DNA of 64,000 bases from a virus (IMGVR_UViG_3300035454_000933:154-64153), one strand, 5' to 3'. Numbered from the stretch's first letter, positions 5,223 through 59,836 are shown. Made by a program: numbers and translations. The notes: generated by a model from the letters alone, not told the origin.

Positions 5223-5244
5223 CGGGTCATTTTGGCGTCACGAC
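5223..5244 (-). promoter_or_regulatory. Late promoter motif GTCGTGA-CGC-CAAAAT (leadered)
   Basis: Intergenic, 36 nt before ATG 5201. Confidence 0.7.
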
Positions 5245-8496: not shown

Positions 8497-8518
8497 AGGC
8501 CGATCATGGCATCACGAC
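8497..8518 (-). promoter_or_regulatory. Late promoter motif GTCGTGA-TGC-CATGAT (leadered)
   Basis: Intergenic, before the esterase tailspike. Confidence 0.65.
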
Positions 8519-14746: not shown

Positions 14747-14768
14747 GCACCCATTCTGACGTCACGAC
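14747..14768 (-). promoter_or_regulatory. Late promoter GTCGTGA-CGT-CAGAAT-N6-ATG (leaderless)
   Basis: Exact spacing. Confidence 0.75.
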
Positions 14769-23857: not shown

Positions 23858-23879
23858 GGTCGGATTTTGGCGTCACGAC
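23858..23879 (-). promoter_or_regulatory. Late promoter GTCGTGA-CGC-CAAAAT-N6-ATG (leaderless)
   Basis: Exact spacing. Confidence 0.75.
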
Positions 23880-26792: not shown

Positions 26793-26814
26793 GCGTTCAT
26801 TCTGACATCACGAC
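26793..26814 (-). promoter_or_regulatory. Late promoter GTCGTGA-TGT-CAGAAT (leadered, SD GGAG)
   Basis: Directly downstream of a terminator. Confidence 0.7.
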
Positions 26815-31056: not shown

Positions 31057-31079
31057 GGGTGGGATTTTTTCGTCACGAC
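31057..31079 (-). promoter_or_regulatory. Late promoter GTCGTGA-CGA-AAAAAT-N7-ATG (protease/scaffold/capsid operon)
   Basis: 16-nt spacing, no SD. Confidence 0.75.
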
Positions 31080-31377: not shown

Positions 31378-34300
31378 TTAGAACAGGCCGGCTTGAGGCG
31401 TTGCCGAGGCTTGACGGCGCGCCTTGATGGCGCCGGCCAGGCCGGTGTCGTCCAGACCGTCCAGAGTTTCCGCCATCATGTCCTTGAGCGCGTACTTCTT
31501 GCGCAGCCTCTCGCGCGATCTCCGCTCTTCTGGGTGGTCGGCCTCCAGGTCGAGCAGCTCGATGGCGGACTTCTGGCCCAGGCGGTCGATGCGCTTGTTC
31601 CGCTGGCTGTGGGTCTTCGCCGTGTCTGGAATGTCGTGCTGGATCAGGTACCGGCCCGACTGCAGGTTCAAACCAACAGCCGCGGCGTCAGAGGCCACCA
31701 GGATATCGGCCTCCGGAGGTCCGCCACCGTCCGGGTTGAACATGCGGCGCTTGCGGTCCTTCTCCTTGGCGCCGTCCGACCCCGTGATCACCACGACACG
31801 CTTGCCGGCGGCCTCCAGCGCCTTGCGGTACTGCTCCACGCTCTCGCGGTTGCGCGCGAACACGATGCCCTGCTTGTCGGGGCGCGCCTGCACCAGCTTG
31901 AGCGCGTGCGCGACCTTGGCGTTGTCCGGGTGGCTGTTGATGATCCGGTTCATGGCCGAGGCGCGCAGAACACCAACGGCCTTCTGCAGCTGGGCGGCCA
32001 CGGCCTCGTGCTCTTCGTCGGGCACGCCAGCAAACGAGTTCGGAGACAAGGCCTTGATGGCCGCCACGTCGACCTTGCCGGCCTTCTGCGCCATCCGGGC
32101 CCGAGCCAGGTGTTTGTCCAGATCCCCTATCGCCTGATGCTGCCCAGCCGACAGCTGCACCAGCTCGCGTTTGCGCTCGCGCTGAATGTCCGGGGTGATA
32201 TCGGTGGGGAAAATGTAGCGCGCCATTTCCCGCTGCAGCGCGTTCTTGCTGGCGATGGTGTCAGCGCCATACCGGCGCATGAAAGCCGACCGATCGGCGT
32301 AGCGAACCGGGTCCATCTTGTGCAGCAGGGAGTGCACCTCGCTGGCATCGTTCTTCACCGGGTCGCCGCTGGCGTAGGTGTGGTACGGCGTGTGGTGCCC
32401 GGCGGCCTCGATCACGTTCGACAGCGAGGAATTCTCCTTGCCGGCGCGGTTCAGCGTGTCGTGCGCCTCGTCGACGAACGAGGCGTCGAAGTTGATGCCC
32501 TCCTTCTCCCAGGTCGAAGCGATCCACTCCTGGCGCTGCGCGGGCGTCATACCCTGCAGCTTGTCGGTCATTTCGTCTTCACTGATGCCCGCGTGCTGGG
32601 CGCCCAGGTGCACCATGTCGTCACGGAAGGACTGGTGCGTCATGACCGCGATATGGGTTCCGGCATCCTTGTAGGCGGCAATCCGATCGTCCCGATTGGC
32701 GCCAGGCTGGATATGGGTCTTGAACTTGCCTGGCTCCAGCAGGCGCAGCGCCTCGCCGTTGAACTGACCCTGCACCACCGACGGCACCAGCATGATGGAG
32801 CGCTTGATCTTGCCCTGGCTGGCCAGGTGCGCGTGCGCGCCCAGCATCATGTTGGTCTTGCCGGATCCAGCCCCAGCGGCCAGGCCCATGCGCTTGTTGG
32901 CGTCCAGGTACTTGATGGCGCGCTGCTGGGCGGCGTACTTGCCGGACATGCTGATGCCCCAGAGCTTCGTGGGCTGCCCGGGTTTGAAGTTGGCTCCGAC
33001 GTGCTCCATCATGCCGGCGATCTGCCGCTCGACCACGTGGCCGACCGTGTGGCGCTCGTCAGCACCCAGTTTGTGTTCAACCGGCGCATCGCTACCGCCG
33101 TTGTTGCTCAAATTCTCGTCTTCTTGAGACGCAAAGAAGCCCATCTGGGCCTGCTCCATGGCAGCCTGCTCCTTCTGGGCCGCCTCGATCTTGTCGGCCA
33201 CCGCGCCGCTGGCGTACTTGCCTCCAACCCGGTTGCGCAACCGATCGATCAGATCCTTGTCCTTGGCCTGGCGCGCTTCGCGAGCAGCAGGATCCACAGC
33301 GTCCAGGTGGTTCAGGTTGTTCCTGATGGTCCTCTTGCCCAGCTTGATCGGATTGGCCGGATTCAGCTTGTTGTGGGTTTCAACGAACGACGACGCCACG
33401 CGCGAGCGGATCACGTCCTGGACGGCCTCGTAGGCGCGCTCGTTGCCGCCCATGGTCTTGAGGTACTTCGACCAGGTCAGCGAGCTGGCGTTCAGCTTGG
33501 CCGACAGGTTGTCGCGGTGGCTGCGCCAGTCCTGCCAGTCGGGGTTCGGCACGGTGTCGCCGAACATATCGGTGGACTCCTTCTCGGGCTCCGATCCGAT
33601 GTGGTCTTCAAGCTCCTTGCGCATGGCGCCGGCCGAAGCGTCCTCCTTCGCGATGTTGCGATAGAAGAACTCACGCAGGGCCGACTGGTCCTTGTGCTCC
33701 AGTTCACCGATCTGCTTGTACGCTGCGGTGGCCTCTGGAGTCTCAGCCAAAGCCCGGTGCAGGGCGTCCACCGAGTGCTGATCCACGGCCACCTTCTGGC
33801 GGTTGAGCGTGGTGCGCTGGCCGCCCAGGCTGGTCACGTGATCATCGGCGTACTTCTCGAAGATCGGGTCCAGGTCCTCGGCGCGCTGCTGCTTGCCGTC
33901 GGCGCCCTTGAGTGGCGCCACCTCGTCGAGCGCCTTCCGATAGTCCTCGGTCCGGTCGAAGCCGACCTTCTGGAAGAAGGCCGCCGACTGCACATCGGCC
34001 AGGATATCCACCGGGCTGTCCCCGTCCGCCGCGCGCGCGCCGATGTAGGTGCGAAGCGAGGCAGACAGATCCGCGCTGGGCTGGAACGGCTGCGCCAGGC
34101 GATCGGCGACACCGGCCTTCACGTCCATGACCAGGTCCGGGCGATTGGCTACGCCCTGCGGCAGCCAGCCGTCCTCGTCCTGCTTGCCGGAAACGATATC
34201 GAGGTTGCGGCGGATTTGCTGCAGGTCCTGGTGTGATGTGGGTCGGGCCAGGCGAAGCATGCCGGCGTGGTTGATGGTGAGGAATGTGTTCGAGCCGTCA

Positions 34301-35931
34301 CGCTCGAGCGAATAGTCGCCCGGCATCAGGCCGATCGCGCGCGCCTGAACCACGGCTGAGTCCAGCGCCATGTTGCCGAGTGAGGTGTGGAAGTCGCCGT
34401 CGCCCGGGCCCTTCATGGCCATGACGAGAGCGGCATTGGCCTCCATTTCACCCAGGGCCTGCCCCAGGATGCGCTGGGCGTCACCGACCGCGGCGCGGCG
34501 GCGCGCGTTCAGCTCCTGCGCCACTGACAGCTCGGCGCCCGTCTGGGCCTCGTCGGAAACCTCGATCGCCTTGGCTGCATCGGTCAGGTCGCGGGCTTTC
34601 TTCAGCGCCTCGGTGCTGGCGACCATGTAGTGGTTCATGTGCCAGTCCTGGACGCCATCGGCCACGCTCTGCACGTCCTCGGCGGGCATGTCCGCGTGGA
34701 TCCGGCGGGCCAGCACCTGGGCGGCGCCGGCCACACCGAGCACGTCGACAACGGATCGGTCGACCAGCGCATCACCGCCGACGGCCAGCGCCAGCGCGTT
34801 GATGCTGTTGTAGGCGCCGACACCGATGTGGCCGCCCAGCGTCTCGCTCGGGTTGGCCCCGGCGATCTTTCCGACCTCGGACAGGAATGCCCGGGTTTGC
34901 ACGGTGCGCAGGTCGGACGCTAGGTCCTCCTTCACGGCGTCATCGACATCGTCGCTGGCCGACAGAACAAACGCCTTCGGCTCAACGGTGGCCGCGGCAT
35001 CAATCTCGGCGTTTGCGTCGCGCGCGGCGCGCTCGATCTGCTGCAGGCGTTTACCCAGCTTGACCAGGTCCAGCGCGTCCTGGGCGGACATGAGGCTCGC
35101 ATCGGCCGTCGGGGCGGCTGGCTCCTTGATGCCCTCCAGCTCGGCCTTGATGGCCGCGGCGGCGCCGCCGTTCTTCTTGAACGCGGCCAGCAGCTGCTCG
35201 GGCGACTTGGCGGCCTGGACCTCCTGCTCCAGAACGGCCGGGGTGAGGCCGGCCGCTTCGGCGCGACCCTTGTAGTCGGCCTGGAAGCCGAGCCCCGAGG
35301 TCAACGGCTTGACCGGGTCAATGTCCTGAACGGACAGCTGGTCCGGGTCGTCGCTGGACAGCGGCAGCTCTCCGATACCGGCGTCAGCGCGCAACGCGGC
35401 ATCGGCCACCAGGCGCTCGCGGCTTTGCTTCACGGCGTCCTTGGCCTTGCCGAGCAGGTCGCGGTGGAACTTATCCTGCACCTTGGCGCGCGCGCCTTCG
35501 GACAGGTGCTCGTAGTCCTCGGCCGGGAATTCCAGCTCAGCGGGATCCCAACCGGCTCGCTTGGCGACCTCCTGGATCAGCCCGAGCTCGGCGGCCTTGC
35601 GTTGCTCGTGCACGGCCTTGCGGGCTTCCTGCTTCGCGCCGTGAACACCGGACGCCTTGTCGGCCGCGATCTGATCCTGGCGCGCGGCCCGCTTCTTGCC
35701 AGCCGACGCCTTGGCCTCTTCTTTGTAGGTGGAATGGGACTTGACGCCGCGCAGTTTGAGGTAGTTCAAGCTGCCGCCGGCACCACCCACCACGCGAGCG
35801 GTACCGTCCGGCTGCGGCTCGATGAGCAGCGGCTGCCCCTTGGACCCCGGCCCGTTCGGGCGGACTGTGATCCAGTGGGCCCCTTCAGGGATGGAGTCGG
35901 CCTTGATGAACAGGCGTGGGATTTGCGGCAT
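31378..35931 (-). CDS. Large head-associated protein with C-terminal SNF2/SF2 helicase-like domain (1517 aa)
   Basis: Walker A AAGAGSGKT, FVDEAH, SGDPVKND, ASDAAAVGLNLQ, SQRNKRIDRLGQ. Confidence 0.85.
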   Translation of the reverse strand: MPQIPRLFIKADSIPEGAHWITVRPNGPGSKGQPLLIEPQPDGTARVVGGAGGSLNYLKLRGVKSHSTYKEEAKASAGKKRAARQDQIAADKASGVHGAKQEARKAVHEQRKAAELGLIQEVAKRAGWDPAELEFPAEDYEHLSEGARAKVQDKFHRDLLGKAKDAVKQSRERLVADAALRADAGIGELPLSSDDPDQLSVQDIDPVKPLTSGLGFQADYKGRAEAAGLTPAVLEQEVQAAKSPEQLLAAFKKNGGAAAAIKAELEGIKEPAAPTADASLMSAQDALDLVKLGKRLQQIERAARDANAEIDAAATVEPKAFVLSASDDVDDAVKEDLASDLRTVQTRAFLSEVGKIAGANPSETLGGHIGVGAYNSINALALAVGGDALVDRSVVDVLGVAGAAQVLARRIHADMPAEDVQSVADGVQDWHMNHYMVASTEALKKARDLTDAAKAIEVSDEAQTGAELSVAQELNARRRAAVGDAQRILGQALGEMEANAALVMAMKGPGDGDFHTSLGNMALDSAVVQARAIGLMPGDYSLERDGSNTFLTINHAGMLRLARPTSHQDLQQIRRNLDIVSGKQDEDGWLPQGVANRPDLVMDVKAGVADRLAQPFQPSADLSASLRTYIGARAADGDSPVDILADVQSAAFFQKVGFDRTEDYRKALDEVAPLKGADGKQQRAEDLDPIFEKYADDHVTSLGGQRTTLNRQKVAVDQHSVDALHRALAETPEATAAYKQIGELEHKDQSALREFFYRNIAKEDASAGAMRKELEDHIGSEPEKESTDMFGDTVPNPDWQDWRSHRDNLSAKLNASSLTWSKYLKTMGGNERAYEAVQDVIRSRVASSFVETHNKLNPANPIKLGKRTIRNNLNHLDAVDPAAREARQAKDKDLIDRLRNRVGGKYASGAVADKIEAAQKEQAAMEQAQMGFFASQEDENLSNNGGSDAPVEHKLGADERHTVGHVVERQIAGMMEHVGANFKPGQPTKLWGISMSGKYAAQQRAIKYLDANKRMGLAAGAGSGKTNMMLGAHAHLASQGKIKRSIMLVPSVVQGQFNGEALRLLEPGKFKTHIQPGANRDDRIAAYKDAGTHIAVMTHQSFRDDMVHLGAQHAGISEDEMTDKLQGMTPAQRQEWIASTWEKEGINFDASFVDEAHDTLNRAGKENSSLSNVIEAAGHHTPYHTYASGDPVKNDASEVHSLLHKMDPVRYADRSAFMRRYGADTIASKNALQREMARYIFPTDITPDIQRERKRELVQLSAGQHQAIGDLDKHLARARMAQKAGKVDVAAIKALSPNSFAGVPDEEHEAVAAQLQKAVGVLRASAMNRIINSHPDNAKVAHALKLVQARPDKQGIVFARNRESVEQYRKALEAAGKRVVVITGSDGAKEKDRKRRMFNPDGGGPPEADILVASDAAAVGLNLQSGRYLIQHDIPDTAKTHSQRNKRIDRLGQKSAIELLDLEADHPEERRSRERLRKKYALKDMMAETLDGLDDTGLAGAIKARRQASATPQAGLF

Positions 35932-35953
35932 CCCAGCAGGATAAGGTCACGAC
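35932..35953 (-). promoter_or_regulatory. Late promoter GTCGTGA-CCT-TATCCT-N6-ATG
   Basis: Exact spacing; motif overlaps the MuF stop. Confidence 0.75.
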
Positions 35954-37101: not shown

Positions 37102-37123
37102 GGCGGAAGTATGGGGTCACGAC
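37102..37123 (-). promoter_or_regulatory. Late promoter GTCGTGA-CCC-CATACT-N6-ATG
   Basis: Exact spacing. Confidence 0.75.
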
Positions 37124-40335: not shown

Positions 40336-40357
40336 TTACCCAGTGTGCCGTCACGAC
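40336..40357 (-). promoter_or_regulatory. Late promoter GTCGTGA-CGG-CACACT-N6-ATG (portal)
   Basis: Exact spacing; shares CGTGACGGCACACTG with the 23889 site. Confidence 0.75.
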
Positions 40358-40540: not shown

Positions 40541-43159
40541 TCAGGCAAACAGCATGCAACCCGGGTCCGTGTGGCGGACCAGGATGTTGTCGCGCTCCGA
40601 GCAGCGGCCAGCCTCATACGCGGTGCACTTGCCACAGGTGCCATCCCGCATCACCAGCCTGGCATCCTCCATCAACGCGCCAACGACGGGCGTGTAGGCC
40701 TCCAGCGCCTTCTGAACCGACGTCTCCTTCGGTTTTTCCTCCACCGGCAAGATGAAGGTGTTTGTGCCGTAGGCCCGGGCCCAGGCCACGTCGCACAGCA
40801 TGTTGGCGTAGCTGGTGTGCGGGTCGATGCCGACCTTCACCACCCGGCGCTTGAACTTGCGCTCTTCCTCGTCCTTCTCGGCCACCAGGGCGGTGCGCGT
40901 GAAGTGCAGGAACGCCAGGTCTTTGCAGACCGCCCGCATTTCGCGCTTGCCCTTTTCGAGCACCTCCTGCACCAGGGCGGACGGGTCCGGGAACAGGCAA
41001 TGCGTTTTCTGGAACCGGCCCATCGACACCTGCATGCACTTGTACTGGTCGAGCGTGACAGTGAACTGATCGCGAGCCTCATCGGTGGTCCGGCGGTCGC
41101 TGGCGTCCTGCTTCGGGGTGTCGCCCCAGCGGATCATGTCGCCTTCCATGTTGCCGTAGCCGGCCAGAAACACCTTGCCGTGGTGCCGGCGCGCAAAGGA
41201 CTTGGCGCTGTCGTAGTTGGGCAGCGTCTCCACCACGCAGCACTGGACGCCGTAGATCTCCATCAGCTCGTCGCACCGGCGCCAGGGCGACGCGTCCGGA
41301 TCCTGTGGCGTGGGCGAGATGTAGATGTACTCCAGGTGGATGGTCGCCTGGCGGCCGTCAGGCATGCGCTCCTTGATGATGGCCACGATGAAATTGCCCA
41401 TCTGGTCCAGCCCCATGAACGTGCCCTTGGCGGAGAGCTTCCACATCAGGCCAGCGGCCATGCCGGCGGCAGCGCAGGCGTTCAGAATCTCCAGGTTGAC
41501 CGGGACCTGGGATGGGTCGGTATAGGGCTTGCCCAGCTTCCGGTTGAAGAAGTTCTTCATGTCGTCGGCGTTGTGGTACGCCTCGATGATCTCGCGCGGT
41601 GAGATCGTCGGTGACAGGAACTGGGGGTAGTGCACGGAGCGGATCTCGGCGTCCGGGTTTTTGGCAATCCACTCGCCGTCCTGCGGATCGTCGATCCAGC
41701 CCGAGCAGCTGACGCACCGGTACCGGTACTCACCCAGAGCGACGGCCTTTCCACGGTTCACGCGGCGCGGCGCATCCGGGTCGTAGCCGATGCACTCCGG
41801 GAAGTGCTCATCGAGCACCTGCAGGTGGCCACAGCACGGGCAGCGCGTGTGGAACTGGTGTTGGGTGCCGCGCTTGAACCACCAGTGGATATCCGAATCC
41901 GGCCAGTTGGCCGTGGAGCCCATCAGGGTGTAGCGCAGCTCCGACGCGGACATACGCTCGCGGACCTTCTCCATGTCCGCGATCGCCATCTCCTGCACCT
42001 CGTCGAACGAGATGATGTCCATGGGAAACGACTCGGTCGCCGTCTTGCCGGTGGTCCAGAGGAAGTGGAAGCGCGACGTGCCCATGTTGCGGATCAGCAC
42101 GTTGCCCTCGCCACCCCGGGTGCCGGTGGCCTGCTTGTCGGTCATGAGCGTGTAGACTTCCGGGATGGTCCGGACGATCGGCATGAAGCGCTCCGATGAC
42201 TTGCCAGAGGCCAGCATCTGAGACGGCATGAACATGCCGATCTTGGCCGGCGCGAAGCGCAGCGCCAGGTAGAGCATGGCCAGCATTTCAAACACCGTGA
42301 AGCCCACCTGGGTGCACTTCATGATCACGTCGACACGACCGAACGCCTCGGCGAGCGTGGACGGGATCAGGTCGTAGATGAACCGCATGGCCGGACGGTT
42401 CGACAGCGTGAACGGGTGGCCGTCCACCTTCAGACCGCTGGCCTCCAGGCGCTCGCACCACCCGAGGAATGTCTCACCGGTCAGCAGGGTCTGCTGCTCG
42501 GGGGTGAGCTCGACGGCGTGCTCCAGGAACTCGGCGCCAAAGCGCTGCTGGTACTCCAGGTCGCCAGCCGACTCGGCGGCCTTGCGAGTTTCCTCCGGCA
42601 GGTGCGGATTTTGCAGGCTGTCGAGCTGGTGGGACGCCCACTCCGGGTCCCGCAGACCCAGGCGCCAGACCTTGTAAAACCCGTTCTGCTTTCCGTAGGC
42701 GCCGGACAGGATCCACGCCGACCCGTTGTGCACGCGCAGGGCCGGGCTGAGCACGTCGAACCAGACGTCGTCGAAAGACTCGATGTGGCGCGCGTCATCG
42801 ACCACGATCAGGGCGTACTGCTCGAAGACCTCCTGCTTTTCCTCCAGGCTGTAGAAATCGATGATGCCACCAGACGTCAGCTCGATGCGGCGCGTGTTCA
42901 CCCGGCGCTTGATCAGCGGGTCGATCGCGCGCATGACGCGGCGCCGGACCTCCACCATGTCGTCGTCGGTGGCCGCAAAGAAGGCCACCGGCCGCTTGCC
43001 GACCAGGGCGCCGCGTTTGGACGTGAGAAGGACGTCGATGCCCAGGGTGGTCTTGCCGCCCTGCTCCCCCATGGCCACCGCATTGAAACGCTTCGATCCG
43101 TCAATCGCCTGCTTCTGGGCGTCGTGGAGGGTGGGTAGGGTGATGCGAACTTGGGCCAT
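40541..43159 (-). CDS. terL: Terminase large subunit, GpA-type, with an extra N-terminal degenerate terminase ATPase domain (872 aa)
   Basis: Second domain IMKCTQVGFT and ISFDEVQEM, Zn motif CPCC...CVSC, nuclease MGLDQ; first domain MGEQGGKTT and IVVDDA. Confidence 0.85.
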   Translation of the reverse strand: MAQVRITLPTLHDAQKQAIDGSKRFNAVAMGEQGGKTTLGIDVLLTSKRGALVGKRPVAFFAATDDDMVEVRRRVMRAIDPLIKRRVNTRRIELTSGGIIDFYSLEEKQEVFEQYALIVVDDARHIESFDDVWFDVLSPALRVHNGSAWILSGAYGKQNGFYKVWRLGLRDPEWASHQLDSLQNPHLPEETRKAAESAGDLEYQQRFGAEFLEHAVELTPEQQTLLTGETFLGWCERLEASGLKVDGHPFTLSNRPAMRFIYDLIPSTLAEAFGRVDVIMKCTQVGFTVFEMLAMLYLALRFAPAKIGMFMPSQMLASGKSSERFMPIVRTIPEVYTLMTDKQATGTRGGEGNVLIRNMGTSRFHFLWTTGKTATESFPMDIISFDEVQEMAIADMEKVRERMSASELRYTLMGSTANWPDSDIHWWFKRGTQHQFHTRCPCCGHLQVLDEHFPECIGYDPDAPRRVNRGKAVALGEYRYRCVSCSGWIDDPQDGEWIAKNPDAEIRSVHYPQFLSPTISPREIIEAYHNADDMKNFFNRKLGKPYTDPSQVPVNLEILNACAAAGMAAGLMWKLSAKGTFMGLDQMGNFIVAIIKERMPDGRQATIHLEYIYISPTPQDPDASPWRRCDELMEIYGVQCCVVETLPNYDSAKSFARRHHGKVFLAGYGNMEGDMIRWGDTPKQDASDRRTTDEARDQFTVTLDQYKCMQVSMGRFQKTHCLFPDPSALVQEVLEKGKREMRAVCKDLAFLHFTRTALVAEKDEEERKFKRRVVKVGIDPHTSYANMLCDVAWARAYGTNTFILPVEEKPKETSVQKALEAYTPVVGALMEDARLVMRDGTCGKCTAYEAGRCSERDNILVRHTDPGCMLFA

Positions 43160-43180
43160 GTCTCATTATTTTCTCACGAC
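43160..43180 (-). promoter_or_regulatory. Late promoter GTCGTGA-GAA-AATAAT-N5-ATG (terL)
   Basis: 14-nt spacing. Confidence 0.7.
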
Positions 43181-43221: not shown

Positions 43222-44133
43222 TTACTTGAGCAGGTCAGCGTCGATCACGAGCATGGACTTCTGCATCGGGGCCGGCTTCTTGGCGCCGCTCACAAAATCC
43301 AGCTTGGTGGGGTGGAAGTTGCCGCCCGACGCGGTTCGGACCTGCGGGCCATGGTGGTCCACGACCTCGTGGGTCTTGCCGGAGCCGTCCTTCACCGTGT
43401 CGCCCTTGCGGAAGTACTTCCCATAGGCCTTGTGCTCTTCGTGCCCGACGTCGCCTTCGGCTGGTGGGATGTAGTCGCCTGCGCCCGCTGGCTTTTTTGC
43501 GGCCGGCTTCTTGGCGCCACCATGAGCGCCAGACGCATACGCATGCTTCAGGGCGTGCTTGAGCAAACCCTTGCTCACCTCTTTGAAGTCCTCTCGATCA
43601 CTACCGACCGTGTCCAGTGAATCGAACTGGCCGAAGTGTTTCCCCGCCTCAGCGACGACACCGTCGCGGTGCGTGCCGCCATTCGAGTGACCAGCGCCAG
43701 CGTCGTAGGCGTGATGCAGTGCGGCCTTCAGGCCGGATTTTCCAGTGTCCACGAAGTCCTCGCGATCGCTTCCAACCTCATCGAACGAGTCGAGCCCGAG
43801 GTGCTTCTTGGCTGCGGCGCTGATTGACTCGTCCATGTGCGCGCCCTTGCCAGTCTGGGAGACGTGGTTCAGCGCGGCGGAGTGGCGATCGGCGACGCCC
43901 TTGTCCTGCAGGATCACGTGGTTCTTGCCGTCCGGCTCCTTGATCTGGTGGCCGCCGTGCTTGAACGGGGCGACGCTGTAGCCGCCGGCCGGCTTCTTTT
44001 CAGAGCCTCCATGCATGCCCCAGGCAGGCTTCGGCTTCGCGGCCTGGCGCTTGTCGTCGTGGGCAGCGACAAAGGCTCCGTCCTTGCGCGTGAAGCCCTG
44101 AATGTGGGCCTTGAGTACCAGCTTCTTGTCCAT
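43222..44133 (-). CDS. Putative head cargo protein with tandem DUF6900-like repeat (303 aa)
   Basis: N-terminal LVLK|AHIQGFTRKDG; two copies of KH(L/F)G.(F)DS.D.VGSDREDF......LK.AL.HAY..GA. Confidence 0.7.
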   Translation of the reverse strand: MDKKLVLKAHIQGFTRKDGAFVAAHDDKRQAAKPKPAWGMHGGSEKKPAGGYSVAPFKHGGHQIKEPDGKNHVILQDKGVADRHSAALNHVSQTGKGAHMDESISAAAKKHLGLDSFDEVGSDREDFVDTGKSGLKAALHHAYDAGAGHSNGGTHRDGVVAEAGKHFGQFDSLDTVGSDREDFKEVSKGLLKHALKHAYASGAHGGAKKPAAKKPAGAGDYIPPAEGDVGHEEHKAYGKYFRKGDTVKDGSGKTHEVVDHHGPQVRTASGGNFHPTKLDFVSGAKKPAPMQKSMLVIDADLLK

Positions 44134-44151: not shown

Positions 44152-44173
44152 GACGGCAGTGTAGGGTCACGAC
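44152..44173 (-). promoter_or_regulatory. Late promoter GTCGTGA-CCC-TACACT (leadered, SD GGAG)
   Basis: Intergenic, before the 303-aa gene. Confidence 0.7.
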
Positions 44174-44586: not shown

Positions 44587-45375
44587 CTAGAACAATGACT
44601 TACCAGCCGACCACTTGCCGGGCGGTGGCTCCGGCTTCTTGGGTGCTGGCCCAGCGCCGATAGCCTCCGCAACGGGATGGTCGGCCCATCCGTTGAGTAG
44701 GTCGTACAGGTGCGACTTGGGCGCCAGGTGCACCGCCTGAGACTCCCAACCCATGGTTGTCGGGTCCCCGCCGACGCGGCGCGCGCGGTACATGCGGGCC
44801 ACCGAGGTGGTGCGATCGAAGTCCCCGACAAAGCCGGTGATCTCGATCTTCAGGCCGGTCTCTTCAAAGGCCTCCTTGATGGCGTTGGCCTGCAGGGACA
44901 GGCCCGCCTCAGCCGTGCCTTTGGGGAATGTGGCGTGGTAGCCGCCGAACTGGTTCGTGGGCGCCGTGAGCCACACGCGGCCGTCCGGCTCTTCGATGAT
45001 GACGCCAGCGCCGATCGACTTTCCGGGCTTGGTCACCAGGGGCGGCTCGGCCAGGTCGTCCATGACGCCATCGACGTAGTCCCAGCCTTCGGCCGTGGTC
45101 GGGTGGTCGCGCCAGGCGGTGAAGCTGACGCCGTTCAGGCGCGCGGGCACATCACCACCGGGCACGAAGGTGGCCACGGCTTCGGGGTTGTCCCAGGTGC
45201 TGTGTGCCGACGGGTGGCTGGGCTTCTTGATCAGCACCGGCTTGCCGTTGTCCCCGAGTGCCGGGTGGTCGTGTGATTCAGGCGCGGGCTCCCCGCCGAC
45301 CCGTTCATACGGCCGCACGTAGTGCTCGCCCCGCATGTGGCCTTTGACGTGGGCCTTGGCCAGGTCTTCAATCAT
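44587..45375 (-). CDS. NUDIX hydrolase with N-terminal cargo-like extension (262 aa)
   Basis: Nudix box GTAEAGLSLQANAIKEAFEETGL (E7 to L and R15 to K variant); N-terminus LAK|AHVKGHMRGEHYVRPY. Confidence 0.85.
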   Translation of the reverse strand: MIEDLAKAHVKGHMRGEHYVRPYERVGGEPAPESHDHPALGDNGKPVLIKKPSHPSAHSTWDNPEAVATFVPGGDVPARLNGVSFTAWRDHPTTAEGWDYVDGVMDDLAEPPLVTKPGKSIGAGVIIEEPDGRVWLTAPTNQFGGYHATFPKGTAEAGLSLQANAIKEAFEETGLKIEITGFVGDFDRTTSVARMYRARRVGGDPTTMGWESQAVHLAPKSHLYDLLNGWADHPVAEAIGAGPAPKKPEPPPGKWSAGKSLF

Positions 45376-45866
45376 CGCACCCCCAGGATCAGGTTCGCTG
45401 TGTCTTGCAGCATGGCCTCCAGCGCGGCCTTGACGTCGTCATCACCCATCTGGCCGTCCTCGTGCTGCACCGCCAGATCCACGATCGACGAAGCAACCGT
45501 GGTGAACAGGAGTAGGCCCGGGTCATCGACGCCAGGCGTTTCTGGCACGACGAGCTTGATGCGGCGGCCCAGCCGGTCCGGGCTGTTCCAGGGAAGCGGC
45601 GAGTACCGCGGATCCGCGCCCATGACCACATGACCGTACTCGGCAGCGAGGTCCCGGATCTGCTCGATCGCTTTCTCGTTGGACAGTGTGTCAGCGTTGT
45701 AGGCGCGGCGCACACCGACGACCTGCTGCGCGAACTCGGACACCAGCGCGCTGACAACGTCCGGGTCGCCGAGCGACGGGCGCTGGCCCGGCGGCTTGAA
45801 GCCCAGGTCTTCCTCGCGGCCGCGCTCGGCGGCGCGGGAAGCTTCATCGTTGTTCGGTTCCATCAT
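45372..45866 (-). CDS. Hypothetical acidic protein coupled to the ART gene, candidate inhibitor (164 aa)
   Basis: TGATG overlap with the 1798-aa gene stop and ATGA overlap with the NUDIX gene. Confidence 0.7.
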   Translation of the reverse strand: MMEPNNDEASRAAERGREEDLGFKPPGQRPSLGDPDVVSALVSEFAQQVVGVRRAYNADTLSNEKAIEQIRDLAAEYGHVVMGADPRYSPLPWNSPDRLGRRIKLVVPETPGVDDPGLLLFTTVASSIVDLAVQHEDGQMGDDDVKAALEAMLQDTANLILGVR

Positions 45867-48800
45867 CAAATCCCCAGGTCAGGCGGCAACATCAGGATCT
45901 CCAGCTCCAGGCGCTGGGCCCCTGGGTTCCCGTGCTCTTCATCCGGAACCATTTTTTTGGACAGTATAACGAAGCGGGCATTTGGTAAAGTCGTTACCTC
46001 CTTCTCGCCAGCGAAGCCTCCAGACCCGAAGGACTCGACCGCCTTTGCCCCCTTGGCATAGACGACCTTCACCCGGTGGGTGCCGAAGCCCTTCGTGGCC
46101 GTCGGGCTGTAGCTTGTGCACATCGGGCCCGTGGCCTGGAACACCGTGCCGTCCTTGGCGGACATGATGTGCTCCAGCATCTGGGGCGACATTTTCTGCC
46201 AGCGGTACAGGCAGGTGCCCTCCGGCATCGCCGTGGCGTGCGCCAGCGCGGCCTGGGCCACGTCCTTGAGCAAGTTCCCCTGGTGGTCCTGGCTCTTGCC
46301 GTCTCGGAACAGGTCGTTGTAGGAGCCCGACGACTGGACCGAGGAAATGAAGTGCTTCGCCAGCTTCGAAGCCGACTTGTACTTGGCCTTGGCTGCTTCG
46401 ACCGCCGTGGTGGTGTAGTTGCTCAGCACCTTGGGCTTGAAATTCCCCGGCGCGCCGATCGCCCCAAGCGCCACCCAGAAGCCGAGCTTCTCGTTGCTTT
46501 GGACCTTGGCGACCGTGGTGCCGAACGGCTTCGGGGGGAACGCGGCGTTCAGGGCGGCCAGGGAGCCGACGTCGGTCGATCGGAAGACCTTCAGCGGCTG
46601 CGGCGGGTTCGCCACCTCGTCGAGCACCTGCAGCAAGTCCTGCTGGTACTGCAGCACGTGCTTGGACGGGTGCTTCGACACCGGTAGCATTTTCCCGGTC
46701 GGCTCGCCGGTGTCCTTGTTGACCTCCTGGAATTTGAAGTCGGCCAGCGCAACCATGTTGCCGGTGGCCGCAAGGCTGCGCATCGCCTGCTCGACGGCCT
46801 CGTTGCTCTTGTTGACGTGAGGCTTGGAGCTCAACCCGACGCCCGCCCCGTTCCAATTCGAGAAGTCGTGCACCTTGGGCAGCGACGCCGGGTTGATCGG
46901 CAGGGCCGTCGGGTCGAGCGCCTTCTTCGGCGGCTTGGCGGCCTTCGGGAAGCGTGCGATCAGGTCGTTCTTGCGCGCGATCAGCGTGTCGGCCATGGCC
47001 TTCTTCTGCGCCTCGGTACCGGGACCGTGGTCGAAAACCAGGGCGCGAATGGCCGAGTCGTCGATGGCCGCCACCTTCGCCACGCTGGCGGTCAGGTCGG
47101 CCACGGTCATCTTGCCGAACACGGCCGCCGACTTCGGGTTCAGCTTGGCGTCGCGCAGGGTGTCGATCTCGTCGACCTTGGGGCCGAATGGCTTCTTTGC
47201 GCCCTGGGCGCGGTACTCCAGCGAGCCACCCGCATCGACGCGGTGGGCCTTGCCGTCGGGCCCGATCTGGCAGTTGTCGAGCGCCAGGCCGATCACGTCC
47301 CAGTTTCCGAGCCAGGCGTCCACCGCGAAGCCGGCGTGCACACCTTCGACCTTTGCGAGCGCAGTGGCGCTGCTCGCCGGCTTAATGTTGACCCACTTCG
47401 ACGCGATGCCGACCTTGCCCGCCTTCGTGACCAGCTGCGCATCCTGGCTGGACAGTCCGGCCAGAGCGTAGAGCTTGGCGGCCAGCACCTCGCTCTTGGC
47501 GGTGTCGGCGTCGTTGGGGAATTTGCAGTACCACTCCTGGCCGGTCGGGTCCTTGAATTTGCCGCCCGGGTTCGAGCCGCCCTGCTTGCCGGTCTGCGCC
47601 CAGGCGTCCATGGCGGGCGCCGCGGCCGTCGTGCTCGAAGCGGAAGACCCGGCGCCAGGCATGTCCGAGGCGCTGAACGAAGGGTCGAGCTTTTGCAGCA
47701 TGTGCAGCGGCGGCACGGTGTGGCCCGCGGCCGACATCTTCTGCACCAGCTCCTGCAGGGTGGTCGCTTGAGCTGCCGGATCCCCGGTGTTGGCCTGCAT
47801 GCTGGCCTCGTCGTGGTACTCGGCGCCCATGCTGGGCTCGAAGGCCACCAGGCCCTCGTGGTTGCCGATGGTCCCAGCGCCACTGAAACCCGGGTCGTTC
47901 GGGCTGTGGACCCAATCGCCAGCGCCGTCGTCGCCGGTCTGCATCTTCACCCAGTGGCCGTCCTTGAGGATGAGCATGCCGTCGGCGCCCATCTTCGTGT
48001 CGCCTTCTTTCGGTCCCTGCTGCGCATCGGCGTCGTGCTCGTGCGTGCCGTATCCCTGGTACGTGTAGCCGTTGGCCGACTTCTGCTTGATCAGCGTCGT
48101 CTTCATGGCGGCCGCGGCCTGCGGGGAAGCCAGGTGCTTGACCGTCGTCTGCTGGGTCCCGCCGATCTTCCCGTACTCGGTCTTCAGCGTGGACCCATGC
48201 ACCGACACCGACCACGACTTGCTGTGCGTGCCGGTGGTGTTGTGGAAGACCTGCGAGGCCACGCTGATCTTGGCCGGCTCGACCGGCTCCGACATTTTGT
48301 GCCGGACGATCAGCTTCTTGATGTGCGCGAGCATCGGCTTGGAGAGCTGCAGCTTCGACATGCTCTCCAGGTTTTCGAGCGTCAGGTTGTTGAGCGCCGC
48401 CTTCTCGTCTTCAGAGAGAGGCTTGATCATCTTCTCGATGTGCGCCTTGACCTCTGGCTTCAGGCTGCCGACCTCCAGCATCTCCTGCAGGTCGGATATA
48501 TCCAGGCTCTCCAGCGACTCCAGCACAGACGGGTGCACGCCTACCGGCTTCCCGGACAGCGCCCAACCGTGAAGGTTGTGCACCTTCTCTGTGGCCAGCT
48601 GCAGGGACGCATCGAACTCGTCGTCGGCCATCGACGAAACGTCTCCGGCGATGTTGCTCTGAATGGCGTCGTTGAACGCCTCCATGGCGGTGTCTGGATC
48701 CGAGTCCTCCAGGGCCGCGTAGGCTTCGGCCTGCTCCTTGGTGGGTTGCTTGCCGGCGGCCATGGCGGCCTTCCAGCCGTTGAACGCTTCGTTTGCCGCG

Positions 48801-51262
48801 GGCTCCGGAGAAGCGGCGTCGGCAGCCGTCGGCACGTGCGCCACGCCCAGGGCGGCCAGCGCGTCGGCGCCGTATTTGTGCCAGGCCTGGGCGTCCTTGT
48901 TGTCTGACCCAGCCAGATGCTGGGTGTTTTCCTGCAGGGTGGCGATGTCCTTGTTTTTGAAGGCGTCCACCATGACGGAGCCCGTCAGATTGAAATGCGA
49001 CGTCACCGGCGGTACCGGTGGGGTTTTGCTCAAGTACGCCAGCGCCGCGGCGGCGTAGGCATGAGCCGCCTTGGCGCCAGCGGACTCCAGGCCATCGGCC
49101 AGCGTCTGGTGGTCATCAATTTTTGCGACGTTGCCACTGTTCAGAGCCTGCTCGATATCGTCGATCACCTCAGACCAGTGAACCGAGACGAGGCCGGTCG
49201 GCTTCGCTGGCTTCGAGCTGGTGGGCTCCGTGGCCACGGCCGCGGTAGCGCCAGGCTCGCCCAGGCCGGCGAGCGCGGTCTGCGCGAGAAGAACCTGCTT
49301 CTTGGCGTAGGTCTGCTTGGCTGCACCCTTGGCGTCGATGAACGCCTGCAGGCCGGCCGTGTCGCCAGCGAAGGCCATGGCCTCGATCTTGGCGACCGCG
49401 GCGTTGTGGCTCTTGGCGTTGGTGTTCGCGTCCGGCAGCTTCTGCTTGTACCAGGGGATCGACTGCAGGTTCTGCAGCTGCTGGGACGAGAGGGTGCTGG
49501 TGGACGGCGCCGCAGGCGACATGGTCACGTTGCCCGGTACCGGAGCCACATCGGCCAGGACCTTGGCCACATTGGCCTGCACGCCAGGCTTCAGGCTGGA
49601 CCACGGAACCTTTGCAACGGCATGCGCGGTGGTGTTCGGGATGCCGGTGGCCGTGGCGTAGACCGACGGGTCGCTGGCGGCCAGGTACTGCGCCTTTTTT
49701 CCCCAGGACAGGCCGTCCCACTGGTACCCGACCGAACCGGCGGCTGGCGGGGCCTCGCCGCCCTGCTTCACCCAGTGCCCGTCCTTCAACACCAGGGTGC
49801 CGCCGTCGGCGCCGGGTTTTGTGTCGCCCTCCTTGGGGCCGCTTGCCGACCACTGCATCAGGCTCCCGCCGTCGCTCGTGGCGGGCGCGCCGGAGTGCAC
49901 GAAGCCCTGCTTCTCGTAGAAGCCGACAGCGTCCTTGGTGGCGTAGAGCTTGATCGGCAGGTCGCCATAGCTGGCGAATTTCTTGGCCTCGGCCAGAAGC
50001 TGGGTGCCAGCACCCTTGTCCACGGAACCGATGTGGTGCACCTCGACGCTGTCGCCGGTCTTGCCGAACGCGATCGCCGCGGTCACCTTGCCGCCGGAAT
50101 CCTTGATGACGAACTTGTTCTCGTAGTTAGAGAACAGCGCGTTGTTGATCTCTTCAACAGCGGCGGCCGGGCCAGGCTTGATCAGCTTTTGGAGCTCGAC
50201 GGCTTCCGTGATGCCGTCCCCGACGAACTGCGGGCCGGTTGCAGGGGCAGCGGCAGGAGCCGGTGCCGGCTTCGCCCCACCCTTGGCGTGCTCCAGCGCC
50301 GCGGCGTGCAGGGCCACGAGCTTCTTGCTGTTGGGCGTCTTGCCATGCCACATCTTCTTGTGCGGCTCGGCGGCGTCCTGCACCACCTGGACGTTACCGG
50401 CGTTGGCGTGGTCGATGATCTTCTGGGCCGTCTTCTCGTAGAGGGCCTTCACGCCGGTGACGGTCTTGCCCTCCTGGAAGGTGGGCATCTGCAGCGGGGC
50501 TGCGGTGGGCGCCGTGACCGGCTCCGGTGCCGGCGCCTCCGGCTTGAACTGCTCGGGCGCCTTCGCCACCAGGTGCATGCCGAACTTCTCAGCCAGCACC
50601 TTCTGCGCAGCGATCGCCTTCTCGCCAAAGTCCGCAGCGTCGAAGGCCTCCTGCTCGTCGTCGCCGTTGTTCAGCGCCAGCACGAAGCCGTCGACCTTGT
50701 CGTCCAAGCTGGCGGGCAGCGCGCCCTTGAGCGCGAGAGCGAGGCCGGCGTAGCCGCCCAACCCCTGCACCTCGGTTGGCTCGGCAGCGGTCGCAGCCGG
50801 CGCCGTGTTGGCCTCTCCGGACACTGCGCCATGGGTACCAGCCTTCTGGCCTGGTTTGACCATGTGTGGGCTGCCGTACAGACCGAGGATGTGGTTTGCG
50901 ATCTTGGCCAGCTTCTGGGAATAAGAATTCGTGCCGTAGCCCGCGCCCAGAATGGCGGCCACGTTACCTGTGTCAGACCACTCCTTCAGTTTTGCCAGCG
51001 CGCCGTTGAAGGTCTTGGCGTTGACGTTCGAGTCCGGGATCTTGAGGGCATCCAGCATCTCCGGCGTGAAGTGCGGAGACGGCACCACTGCGTGCGATTG
51101 GGGTGCGTGAGCGACTGGTGCTCCTTTGGGGGCGGGCTTGTCGTCGTGAAGTTTGTGCCAGCGGCCGTTGTAGAGGTAATGCTTCCCCGAGTGCTTGAAC
51201 TTGCCCTCGTGAACGATGGACTTCAGCAATAGGACGAGGCGTGGGGATTGATTGGCGGCCAT
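45866..51262 (-). CDS. Polyvalent protein: GNAT + WGR + HipA/PI3-4-kinase-like + R-S-E ADP-ribosyltransferase (1798 aa)
   Basis: GNAT DKGAGTQLL and AVGFYEKQGF; WGR KSWSVSVHGSTLKTEYGKIGG; kinase GGSNPGG, WYCK, KSEVLA, DAWLGNWD, DN, RVDAG; ART LYR, CTS, EKE. Confidence 0.85.
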   Translation of the reverse strand: MAANQSPRLVLLLKSIVHEGKFKHSGKHYLYNGRWHKLHDDKPAPKGAPVAHAPQSHAVVPSPHFTPEMLDALKIPDSNVNAKTFNGALAKLKEWSDTGNVAAILGAGYGTNSYSQKLAKIANHILGLYGSPHMVKPGQKAGTHGAVSGEANTAPAATAAEPTEVQGLGGYAGLALALKGALPASLDDKVDGFVLALNNGDDEQEAFDAADFGEKAIAAQKVLAEKFGMHLVAKAPEQFKPEAPAPEPVTAPTAAPLQMPTFQEGKTVTGVKALYEKTAQKIIDHANAGNVQVVQDAAEPHKKMWHGKTPNSKKLVALHAAALEHAKGGAKPAPAPAAAPATGPQFVGDGITEAVELQKLIKPGPAAAVEEINNALFSNYENKFVIKDSGGKVTAAIAFGKTGDSVEVHHIGSVDKGAGTQLLAEAKKFASYGDLPIKLYATKDAVGFYEKQGFVHSGAPATSDGGSLMQWSASGPKEGDTKPGADGGTLVLKDGHWVKQGGEAPPAAGSVGYQWDGLSWGKKAQYLAASDPSVYATATGIPNTTAHAVAKVPWSSLKPGVQANVAKVLADVAPVPGNVTMSPAAPSTSTLSSQQLQNLQSIPWYKQKLPDANTNAKSHNAAVAKIEAMAFAGDTAGLQAFIDAKGAAKQTYAKKQVLLAQTALAGLGEPGATAAVATEPTSSKPAKPTGLVSVHWSEVIDDIEQALNSGNVAKIDDHQTLADGLESAGAKAAHAYAAAALAYLSKTPPVPPVTSHFNLTGSVMVDAFKNKDIATLQENTQHLAGSDNKDAQAWHKYGADALAALGVAHVPTAADAASPEPAANEAFNGWKAAMAAGKQPTKEQAEAYAALEDSDPDTAMEAFNDAIQSNIAGDVSSMADDEFDASLQLATEKVHNLHGWALSGKPVGVHPSVLESLESLDISDLQEMLEVGSLKPEVKAHIEKMIKPLSEDEKAALNNLTLENLESMSKLQLSKPMLAHIKKLIVRHKMSEPVEPAKISVASQVFHNTTGTHSKSWSVSVHGSTLKTEYGKIGGTQQTTVKHLASPQAAAAMKTTLIKQKSANGYTYQGYGTHEHDADAQQGPKEGDTKMGADGMLILKDGHWVKMQTGDDGAGDWVHSPNDPGFSGAGTIGNHEGLVAFEPSMGAEYHDEASMQANTGDPAAQATTLQELVQKMSAAGHTVPPLHMLQKLDPSFSASDMPGAGSSASSTTAAAPAMDAWAQTGKQGGSNPGGKFKDPTGQEWYCKFPNDADTAKSEVLAAKLYALAGLSSQDAQLVTKAGKVGIASKWVNIKPASSATALAKVEGVHAGFAVDAWLGNWDVIGLALDNCQIGPDGKAHRVDAGGSLEYRAQGAKKPFGPKVDEIDTLRDAKLNPKSAAVFGKMTVADLTASVAKVAAIDDSAIRALVFDHGPGTEAQKKAMADTLIARKNDLIARFPKAAKPPKKALDPTALPINPASLPKVHDFSNWNGAGVGLSSKPHVNKSNEAVEQAMRSLAATGNMVALADFKFQEVNKDTGEPTGKMLPVSKHPSKHVLQYQQDLLQVLDEVANPPQPLKVFRSTDVGSLAALNAAFPPKPFGTTVAKVQSNEKLGFWVALGAIGAPGNFKPKVLSNYTTTAVEAAKAKYKSASKLAKHFISSVQSSGSYNDLFRDGKSQDHQGNLLKDVAQAALAHATAMPEGTCLYRWQKMSPQMLEHIMSAKDGTVFQATGPMCTSYSPTATKGFGTHRVKVVYAKGAKAVESFGSGGFAGEKEVTTLPNARFVILSKKMVPDEEHGNPGAQRLELEILMLPPDLGI

Positions 51263-51284
51263 CCCCGCATTGTTGGATCACGAC
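51263..51284 (-). promoter_or_regulatory. Late promoter GTCGTGA-TCC-AACAAT-N6-ATG (polyvalent protein)
   Basis: Exact spacing. Confidence 0.75.
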
Positions 51285-55760: not shown

Positions 55761-55782
55761 GGCGCAATCTTACGTTCACGAC
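55761..55782 (-). promoter_or_regulatory. Late promoter GTCGTGA-ACG-TAAGAT-N6-ATG (putative terS)
   Basis: Exact spacing; last copy before the early region. Confidence 0.75.
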
Positions 55783-59080: not shown

Positions 59081-59836
59081 TTACAGCATAGCCAGCAGCT
59101 CGGGCGCCGCATTCACGACGGGCGCAACAGCTGGACCCATGGTGGCCAGGTCGATGATGCCGAACGCCTGCGGTGACTCGCCACCGGACATCCAGGCGCC
59201 CGTGTCGAGGAACAGCACGTTACCCAGCGCTGCGATGGCGTTCACGACCGTGTGTCCGACCACGACGACGGCCACACCTTTGACGTCGGAGCGATCGCCC
59301 TGCTCGACGCGGCGCCGCGACCACATGGCCATGTCCCGGACGTGATCGGCCTCGAAGCCTTCCCCGGTCAGCAGCAGGTCGGTGAAGTCGCGCCAGTCGG
59401 CCAGCGGGCAGTCGGCATGCACCAGGCCGACCAGGCCATGGGCGGTTTCCACCTCGATGGCCACCGGCAACGCCCCGAAGGCGTCGATGAAGGGCAGGCG
59501 CTCGGGCGGCGTCATGCCGATGAACCAGGCGCCACCGTTGGCGGCATACAGGCCCGCGTCGCAGGAGCCGGCCGCGTAGTCGAGCGCCATGGCCTCGTGG
59601 TTGCCTTTGACGGCATGAAGCCGATCCAGCCACGCAAGCGCCTGGGCGGACTCCGGGCCGCGGTCCACCAGGTCGCCCACCGAGAACAGGCGATCGCCCG
59701 CGCCATGGTTGAACCCGACGGCATCCAGAGCGGCCTGCAGCTTGGTGAAGCACCCGTGCACGTCGCCCACCACCAGGTCGCGCCCGGCGGTGTTGCGGGT
59801 AAAGCGGCGGACCTGAGAAAGCGCTGATTTGCTCAA
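59081..59836 (-). CDS. Metallophosphoesterase, lambda NinI/PrpA-like Ser/Thr protein phosphatase (251 aa)
   Basis: VGDVHGC, VGDLVDRGPES, KGNHE, VGHT, LDTGA. Confidence 0.9.
   Translation of the reverse strand: MSKSALSQVRRFTRNTAGRDLVVGDVHGCFTKLQAALDAVGFNHGAGDRLFSVGDLVDRGPESAQALAWLDRLHAVKGNHEAMALDYAAGSCDAGLYAANGGAWFIGMTPPERLPFIDAFGALPVAIEVETAHGLVGLVHADCPLADWRDFTDLLLTGEGFEADHVRDMAMWSRRRVEQGDRSDVKGVAVVVVGHTVVNAIAALGNVLFLDTGAWMSGGESPQAFGIIDLATMGPAVAPVVNAAPELLAML

Follow-up and report, generated by a model that had tools for sequence, protein, structure and literature searches.

The closest described systems for the gene discussed here are the polyvalent proteins, large phage proteins in which disparate enzymes are joined in one chain (Iyer, Burroughs, Anand, de Souza, and Aravind 2017, PMC5512222; extended in PMC9503650). 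ADP-ribosyltransferase (ART), kinase, and GNAT acetyltransferase domains are listed among their constituents, and the packaging of these proteins, like that of the Alt/VIP2 ARTs, was predicted from their packaging-gene context (PMC5512222, PMC9503650). A protein of this type is encoded on the minus strand at 45866..51262 of a 64,000-nucleotide stretch of viral DNA (IMGVR_UViG_3300035454_000933:154-64153, hereafter the window). It is 1798 amino acids (aa) long, combines a GNAT acetyltransferase, a WGR domain, an atypical kinase-like domain, and an ART, and belongs to a large family of phage proteins. We consider it probable (roughly 0.6) that it is an effector with three enzymes that is expressed late, packaged in the capsid, and brought by injection into the host.

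The likeness to the polyvalent proteins extends to the gene neighbourhood and to the predicted travel with the DNA. Polyvalent proteins contain at least two disparate domains and lie with portal-terminase packaging or late genes; here, three enzyme domains plus WGR are found on an IMG/VR viral contig, and the gene is located in such a neighbourhood. The protein departs from the class in its WGR domain, which is mentioned in neither survey, and in its kinase, which is HipA_C/CtkA-like, whereas the kinase clade of the surveys is of the Ser/Thr/Tyr type without C-lobe and occurs in phages of Verrucomicrobia-Chlamydia and Bacteroidetes (PMC5512222, PMC9503650). Moreover, Alt/VIP2 ARTs were stated not to be seen in genuine polyvalent proteins (PMC5512222).

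With T4 Alt, the protein has in common an ART of the R-S-E class, a fold related to models of T4-type "RNA polymerase ADP-ribosylase", the predicted delivery route, and a probable co-expression with structural genes. Alt, however, is one enzyme with a defined capsid-targeting sequence (CTS), whereas the protein described here adds two enzymes and a WGR domain and is without a defined targeting signal. Injection, if it occurs, would mean that three different protein-modifying chemistries reach the host in one phage protein at DNA entry, a considerably enriched form of the T4 Alt paradigm. T7 gp0.7 is likewise a phage kinase, for which an early phosphorylation of host proteins has been proposed, but it is synthesised early from the incoming genome and is not packaged. 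There is no BLAST-level similarity to Alt, and neither T4-like nor T7-like phages appeared among the tblastn matches at E <= 1e-5; no direct homology comparison with gp0.7 was made.

Enzyme domains and connecting modules

The open reading frame (ORF) runs through 1798 codons without a stop and is intact on translation. A preliminary description of the stretch, made from the sequence alone, had proposed this frame together with a GNAT domain at ~49880-50170 (residues 365-461), a WGR domain at ~48060-48260, two copies of a GPKEGDTKxGADG repeat, a HipA/PI3-4-kinase-like domain with its full motifs, and a C-terminal R-S-ExE ART. All of these are borne out by the results below, the kinase assignment at the level of the superfamily, and the per-domain Foldseek comparison that it had suggested matched the GNAT, kinase, and ART folds.

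The kinase-like domain spans residues 1214-1443 (46934..47623, minus strand). To study it, 76 IMG/VR loci encoding the domain were collected, of which 54 were aligned with residues 1195-1798 of the protein (alignment A1; 55 sequences, 27-70% identical). An AlphaFold2 (AF2) model of this region, built on A1, has a predicted local distance difference test score (pLDDT) of 90.5 and gives residues 1214-1443 a bilobal kinase fold. Its best structural match is CtkA of Helicobacter pylori (Z 15.7; root-mean-square deviation (rmsd) 3.3 Å over 207 residues; Foldseek E 1.7e-6; 18% identity), followed by CotH, MavQ, PI4KIIa, HipA, and HipT (Z 13.9, 12.7, 12.6, 11.9, and 10.2, respectively, over ~190-210 residues each); Fam20 and actin-fragmin kinase are also among the matches. 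Comparison at the level of the fold was needed because phmmer found no match of the kinase segment among PDB sequences and the family profile gave no real PDB match either. The structure 4jw1 was rejected as a relative, its family-profile match being at chance level (E 0.28).

The conserved positions coincide with those expected of a working kinase. K1247, E1258, D1322, and N1330 are identical in all 55 sequences, and G1229, S1230, G1233, and D1343 are conserved in 96-98% of them. The motifs in which the conserved residues lie (the GGSNPGG loop, DAWLGNWD at D1315-D1322, D1329-N1330, and RVD1343-x-GG) are invariant or conserved to more than 90%. The domain has, as judged from the aligned sequences, the full residue set of active kinases, namely the Gly-rich loop, the Lys-Glu pair, the catalytic Asp, and the metal-binding Asn/Asp, by which kinase activity is predicted. 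Like CtkA (PDB 3AKJ/3AKK/3AKL) and the HipA family, it shows the L-G-N-x-D signature of the catalytic loop and the Lys/Glu/Asp set; unlike them, its catalytic loop is three residues longer (D-x6-D-N), it is part of a giant phage protein, and it is without a HipB-type antitoxin. No HipB/HipS-type antitoxin was found beside the gene, whose neighbours encode a 164-aa protein, a NUDIX hydrolase, and a DUF6900 protein, and there is no HipA_N/Couple_hipA Pfam match in the protein. CtkA is also carried by a mobile element, the tfs3 integrative and conjugative element (PMC5536186).

The Pfam model HipA_C (PF07804) does not match the protein itself. It matches 6 of the 55 aligned sequences below threshold (best E 1.9e-5), the sole match with a reported score being that of the relative L031 (21.4 bits compared with a cut-off of 30.5 bits). 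Judged by its modelled fold, the domain is a distant relative of HipA_C that probably works alike and lies outside the curated HipA_C family. The nearest named clusters of the Atlas carry HipA_2 or PI3_PI4_kinase and serve as leads only.

Searched on its own, the kinase domain is found in 4608 representative clusters (50% identity) at E <= 1e-3, and the 150 best of these consist mostly of proteins of ~1000-3400 aa, some with several kinase copies. A metagenomic protein of 3416 aa (P0125) carries five copies of the kinase-like domain. The module is the broader point of this analysis, as it occurs in thousands of giant phage proteins and is missed in our protein by Pfam, PHROGs, and NCBIfam; no description of it was found in the searched literature. 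Its substrates could reveal a common, unstudied route of host takeover or anti-defence, and a model of it would help annotators with a domain that is currently left as "hypothetical".

The C-terminal domain (residues 1611-1793; 45884..46432, minus strand) is, by family profile, modelled fold, and motifs, a member of the R-S-E ADP-ribosyltransferases (Alt/VIP2/C3 clade). Its family profile matches Lmo0066 (E 1.1e-12), VIP2 (5.4e-10), SpvB (1e-9), and Tre1 (5e-5) and furthermore VsdC, Vis, C3, Certhrax, CdtA, and ExoS/T, and its fold is matched by C3bot2 (Z 14.5) and VIP2 (Z 13.5), with Foldseek E values of ~2e-7. R1687 (in LYRW), S1717 (in CTSYS), and E1753-K-E1755 are conserved to 90-100% in ~21 close homologues, and in the phmmer alignment with VIP2 (E 0.04) its LYRW, its S-T-S region, and its EKE fall on the corresponding motifs. 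Among the relatives, 14 match PF03496, and some carry PF18760 (ART-PolyVal). The E-x-E form goes with arginine-specific ARTs, and the Q-x-E form with the Asn-specific C3 enzymes. Since the motif here is E-x-E rather than Q-x-E, the enzyme may be arginine specific and act on a protein target. Kinase and ART are separated by a linker domain (residues 1444-1610; 46433..46933, minus strand), which is alpha/beta in the model and conserved in ~220 of 247 homologues. No trustworthy structural match was obtained for it, the kinase and ART having filled the hit lists, so that it was barely probed.

The GNAT domain (residues 342-475; 49838..50239, minus strand) lies in the N-terminal part of the protein, of which a second AF2 model (residues 1-1194, mean pLDDT 76) was built. 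Pfam Acetyltransf_10 (PF13673) matches residues 379-466 with 24.5 bits compared with a cut-off of 23.6, and PF13508 and PF00583 remain below their cut-offs in this region. The best fold match is YjcF (1q2y; Z 11.4, rmsd 3.2 Å, 128 residues), one of ~45 GNAT structures that match residues 342-475 at Z ~9-11.4 over ~128 residues, and Foldseek returned Gcn5/PCAF/SpeG. Characteristic motifs are the G-x-G pyrophosphate loop (G417-A-G419) and a C-terminal FYEKQGF; the first position of the acetyl-CoA loop (x-x-x-G-x-G/A) is V and not Q/R. By sequence threshold, modelled fold, and motifs, the region belongs to the GNAT acyltransferase superfamily, and its activity is predicted.

The WGR domain (residues 998-1077; 48032..48271, minus strand) is matched by Pfam PF05406 at residues 1007-1069 (E 1.2e-7; 32.2 bits compared with a gathering score of 22). 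Its closest relative is 2ra8, a WGR protein of Bacteroides (phmmer 6.5e-4; Z 11.5, rmsd 1.3 Å over 71 residues, 31% identity). Like other bacterial WGR proteins, 2ra8 is uncharacterised. By analogy with PARP1-3, we infer that the domain may bind nucleic acids. In PARP1-3, too, a single chain carries WGR together with an ADP-ribosyltransferase, but there the H-Y-E domain is coupled directly to WGR, whereas the ART described here is of the R-S-E type and is separated from WGR by over 500 residues, among them the kinase; moreover, the WGR closest to ours is of the bacterial 2ra8 type.

Between these domains lie smaller modules. The 24-residue repeat GPKEGDTK.GADG..L.LKDGHWVK occurs in two copies, one after GNAT (residues 475-499; 49766..49840, minus strand) and one after WGR (residues 1084-1107; 47942..48013, minus strand), and is modelled as a three-stranded beta-meander connector, with strands at 481-499 in the first copy. 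A second repeat, which the preliminary description did not list, is a helical module of ~70 residues at 64-135 (50858..51073, minus strand; pLDDT >90) and 600-670 (49253..49465, minus strand), the latter recognised from the model and its similarity to copy 1. Internal repeats were assessed by Smith-Waterman alignment with shuffles, by which the two copies are alike at z = 13.3; self-BLAST of the protein did not detect internal repeats. Other helical segments of similar appearance were rejected as copies, as they were not significant by the same procedure. Residues 695-990 (48293..49180, minus strand) are all-helical in the model and present in few homologues; no convincing structural match was found for them, GNAT and WGR having filled the hit lists of the multi-domain model, so that this region, too, was barely probed.

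A protein family with a conserved C-terminal core

A search with the whole protein gives more than 243 relatives of 1100-2500 aa, many of them on contigs of ~90 kb. The C-terminal core of kinase, linker domain, and ART (~575 aa) is covered in ~215-240 of 247 sampled homologues, whereas the N-terminal half is shuffled. WGR is found in 84 of the 247, GNAT is limited to 5, and the full set of four domains to 4 (P0002, P0019, P0050, and P0176), the last two counts being those of jackhmmer searches. The first helical module is conserved in many homologues. The family is large and uncharacterised, and consists of a conserved kinase-linker-ART core to which N-terminal modules are attached that are swapped between phages. 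The claim of the preliminary description that no characterised protein has this combination of domains appears true, with the reservation that four homologues have the same four domains and that the combination falls within the already described polyvalent class (PMC5512222, PMC9503650). One member (P0029, Tardiphaga sp., 1291 aa) is encoded on a chromosome-sized bacterial contig of 6.63 Mb, and some phages of the group may therefore be integrated prophages.

The window comprises nearly all of an IMG/VR viral contig of 64,153 bp that was judged ~70% complete, and its G+C content is 60-70%. The nearest cultured relatives are unstudied phages of ~86-95 kb, namely Aeromonas phage ST4, the Pseudomonas phages Dolphis, Jeremy, and Touem01, Morganella phage Mecenats66, Yersinia phage fHe-Yen8-01, and Escherichia phage ECML-606-1, and the window is an incomplete contig of a Dolphis/Mecenats66/ST4-like phage of ~90 kb. 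The myovirus Mecenats66 has Dolphis and Bordetella phage PHB04 as its closest relatives (PMC9503643). In isolate genomes, the homologues are labelled "ADP-ribosyltransferase" or "hypothetical protein". As ST4, Dolphis, Jeremy, Touem01, Mecenats66, and ECML-606-1 are isolates, the family is directly testable.

Proposed delivery with the phage DNA and alternative roles

According to the reading that we favour, the polyvalent gene of this Dolphis/Mecenats66/ST4-like myovirus would be expressed late, alongside the head and packaging proteins. Its four modules (GNAT, WGR, kinase, and ART), joined by Ala/Pro-rich linkers, small helical modules, and the two beta-meander connectors, would be incorporated into the capsid, with the conserved N-terminal region replacing a MuF (possibly portal) fusion. 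The effector would thereupon accompany the DNA into the cell, and its three enzymes would modify host proteins, rather than small molecules, in the first minutes of infection and thereby serve host takeover or the disarming of defences.

The gene lies in a head and packaging block. On a single strand, the order is polyvalent gene, 164-aa gene, NUDIX, 113-aa gene, DUF6900, large terminase (TerL), portal, and, further on, SNF2 helicase (1517 aa), prohead protease, and major capsid protein. The polyvalent gene is immediately upstream of the block containing TerL and portal, and the local order is identical in ST4. It also has its upstream motif in common with these genes. The promoter-like sequence GTCGTGA-N4-A-N3-T at 51269..51284 (minus strand) stops 6 nt short of the ATG (51262) and is one of 14 minus-strand copies in the window, compared with 0.41 expected (the other copies, all on the minus strand, being at 272-287, 5229-5244, 8503-8518, 14753-14768, 23864-23879, 26799-26814, 31064-31079, 35938-35953, 37108-37123, 40342-40357, 43165-43180, 44158-44173, and 55767-55782). 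Each copy is located a few bases 5' of the start of a structural or packaging gene, including TerL, portal, SNF2, protease, DUF6900, and tail genes. The motif is a candidate phage-specific promoter that would give nearly leaderless mRNAs, and since it is common to the polyvalent and the morphogenesis genes, co-regulation with morphogenesis is suggested.

Further indications come from other phages. In distant proteins with the kinase domain, Phage_Mu_F was found at the start in all six tested, so that the same kinase-like domain, and in one of them (L035) the kinase-ART pair, lies C-terminal to the MuF (SPP1 gp7/Mu gpF) domain. The protein described here and its close relatives are, in contrast, without MuF and have a different conserved N-terminal region in its place. 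Structural relatives in BFVD bear the names portal, head-morphogenesis, and minor capsid protein, as well as T4-type "RNA polymerase ADP-ribosylase". One polyvalent protein with MuF and kinase-like domains (L036:5349-10364) shows a sub-threshold match to an intein splicing domain at residues 178-478 (PF14890, E 8e-6). The case for virion packaging and delivery with the DNA is circumstantial and draws on analogy with the MuF fusions of the cassette and with the structural relatives in BFVD. The preliminary description had proposed injection from the head, which is plausible in view of the promoter motif, the proximity of TerL and portal, the MuF fusions, and the structural relatives; a virion proteome of a relative was not found.

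The N-terminal region itself (residues 8-50; 51113..51241, minus strand) is conserved in close homologues and covered in about 110-160 of the 247. In our protein it consists of a hydrophobic run to LLLK-S, a beta-hairpin (..YLYNGRWHK.., with modelled strands E28-31 and E34-37), and then DKPAPKGAPVAH; in close relatives it reads ..LLLK-S.., a G-Y-Y-L-L-N-G-R-W-H hairpin, and DKPAPKGAP. The NUDIX and DUF6900 proteins start with another sequence, L-x-K-A-H-V-x-G-Y-x-R-x-D-G-T-x-V-x-P-H (read as L.KAH[VI].G[FH].R...), which is kept on their counterparts in many related loci. A hidden Markov model (HMM) of this tag scores 3e-15 on the NUDIX and 9e-12 on the DUF6900 protein of the window, and among polyvalent homologues 2.6e-9 on L023 and, weakly, 7e-3 on L021. 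Of the cargo tag that the preliminary description had assigned to the protein, the conserved N-terminal motif has stood, and the tag proper holds for the homologue L023 and weakly for L021, whereas the protein itself gives E ~1 with the NUDIX/DUF6900 model. As the two N-terminal forms occupy the same position in homologous proteins, they may be functionally equivalent. The N-termini of the polyvalent, NUDIX, and DUF6900 proteins repeatedly show L-x-K with A or S behind it, and the capsid protein (~residue 36, DLKK-ALEAS) and the protease (~residue 201, DLTK-ALEAS) have DL[KT]K-ALEAS in common. That L-x-K-[A/S] might be a cleavage site of the maturation protease, with the cut between K and A/S, is a conjecture from these sequences.

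Several points weigh against an injected three-enzyme effector. Neither Pfam nor PHROGs sees a kinase or an ART in the protein, and NCBIfam likewise sees none; the fold likeness of the kinase cannot separate protein kinases from lipid or small-molecule kinases; the sequence match of the GNAT domain is marginal, and the pLDDT of this part of the model is 66-83. The motif is called "late" from the genes beside which its copies occur. The protein is without a MuF or portal domain (Pfam), its N-terminus and those of its close relatives are unmatched by the tag model of the neighbours, and virion proteomics or functional work on family members was not found in the searched literature (Dolphis, PHB04, fHe-Yen8-01, and kinase-bearing polyvalent/MuF proteins). 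The last three points equally favour an enzyme that is not packaged and acts only in the cytoplasm of the producing cell for host takeover or anti-defence, like T4 ModA/ModB or T7 gp0.7, its packaging neighbours being incidental; the coupled 164-aa gene and the NUDIX gene could modulate such an enzyme. We regard this as unlikely, though worth serious attention, as the gene sits inside the head and packaging block and has a promoter motif in common with structural genes, MuF fusions of this cassette occur in other phages, the structural relatives bear portal, head-morphogenesis, and minor capsid names, and late synthesis would leave an enzyme little time in which to reprogramme the cell that makes it.

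The protein could also be mainly a structural internal-head or ejection protein, in which the helical and linker regions form a scaffold or a trans-envelope conduit and the enzymes are accessory or vestigial. About 60% of the chain indeed lies outside the four assigned domains (helical modules, connectors, kinase-ART linker domain, and low-complexity linkers), and the first helical module is kept in many homologues. The most conserved part of the family, however, is the kinase-ART core with its invariant catalytic residues, and it is the helical N-terminal parts that are variable and shuffled, which makes a mainly structural role improbable. We consider even less probable a weapon resembling polymorphic toxins, directed against competing bacteria or phages, which would be released at lysis or serve superinfection exclusion and for which the 164-aa protein would be the immunity factor. 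Such a role would fit the conserved small gene directly downstream, the toxin-immunity effectors Lmo0066 and Tre1 among the best solved relatives of the ART profile, and the resemblance of the kinase fold to HipA and HipT, which are toxin kinases. Pfam, however, showed neither a secretion nor an Rhs/PAAR-type trafficking domain, the gene sits in a morphogenesis block of lytic type, and the protein varies at its N-terminal end, unlike polymorphic toxins, in which the C-terminus is the variable part (PMC5512222).

An extension of the injected-effector reading can be formulated, which we put forward tentatively and hold to be rather doubtful as a whole. The HipA_C/CtkA-like kinase, with or without the R-S-E ART, would be a widespread, unannotated, virion-delivered cassette of tailed phages, which in the Dolphis-like lineage would owe its loading into the capsid to a short N-terminal signal, with an L-x-K-[A/S] prohead-protease site at its end, instead of to MuF. 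The NUDIX, DUF6900, and SNF2 helicase proteins would be loaded by variants of this signal as well, amounting to a T4-CTS-like system that delivers writers and erasers of post-translational modifications, and WGR would keep the effector attached to the DNA end that enters.

Neighbouring genes

Directly downstream of the polyvalent gene, and translationally coupled to it through a TGATG overlap, lies a gene for an acidic protein of 164 aa (45372..45866, minus strand). Its orthologues occupy the same position in at least eight related phages (L004, L005, L010, L017, L018, L024, ST4, and Jeremy) and have an invariant PWN motif; there is no match to the protein in Pfam or PHROG. The protein might inhibit the ART or the kinase, or serve either of them as a chaperone or immunity factor.

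The following genes, all on the minus strand, encode the NUDIX hydrolase (44587-45375), the DUF6900 protein (43222-44133), and TerL (872 aa; 40541-43159). In TerL, the GpA-type ATPase/nuclease begins at about residue 220 (phrog_675, E 4e-93; PF05876), and residues 22-189 show a weak second terminase-like match (phrog_7579, E 4e-4). The SNF2-type helicase of 1517 aa (31378-35931; phrog_62, E 4e-188) is encoded between the portal and prohead protease genes, with the protease at 30175-31056 and the major capsid protein at 27949-29451. The N-terminus of the helicase reads ..RLFIK-A.., and it may be a second packaged giant protein, similar to DarB of P1. On the other side of the polyvalent gene, an ORF of 251 aa (59081-59836, minus strand) begins with GDVHG...GDLVDRG, recognised by eye as the signature of lambda-type Ser/Thr phosphoprotein phosphatases; this putative phosphatase is a possible counterpart to the kinase.

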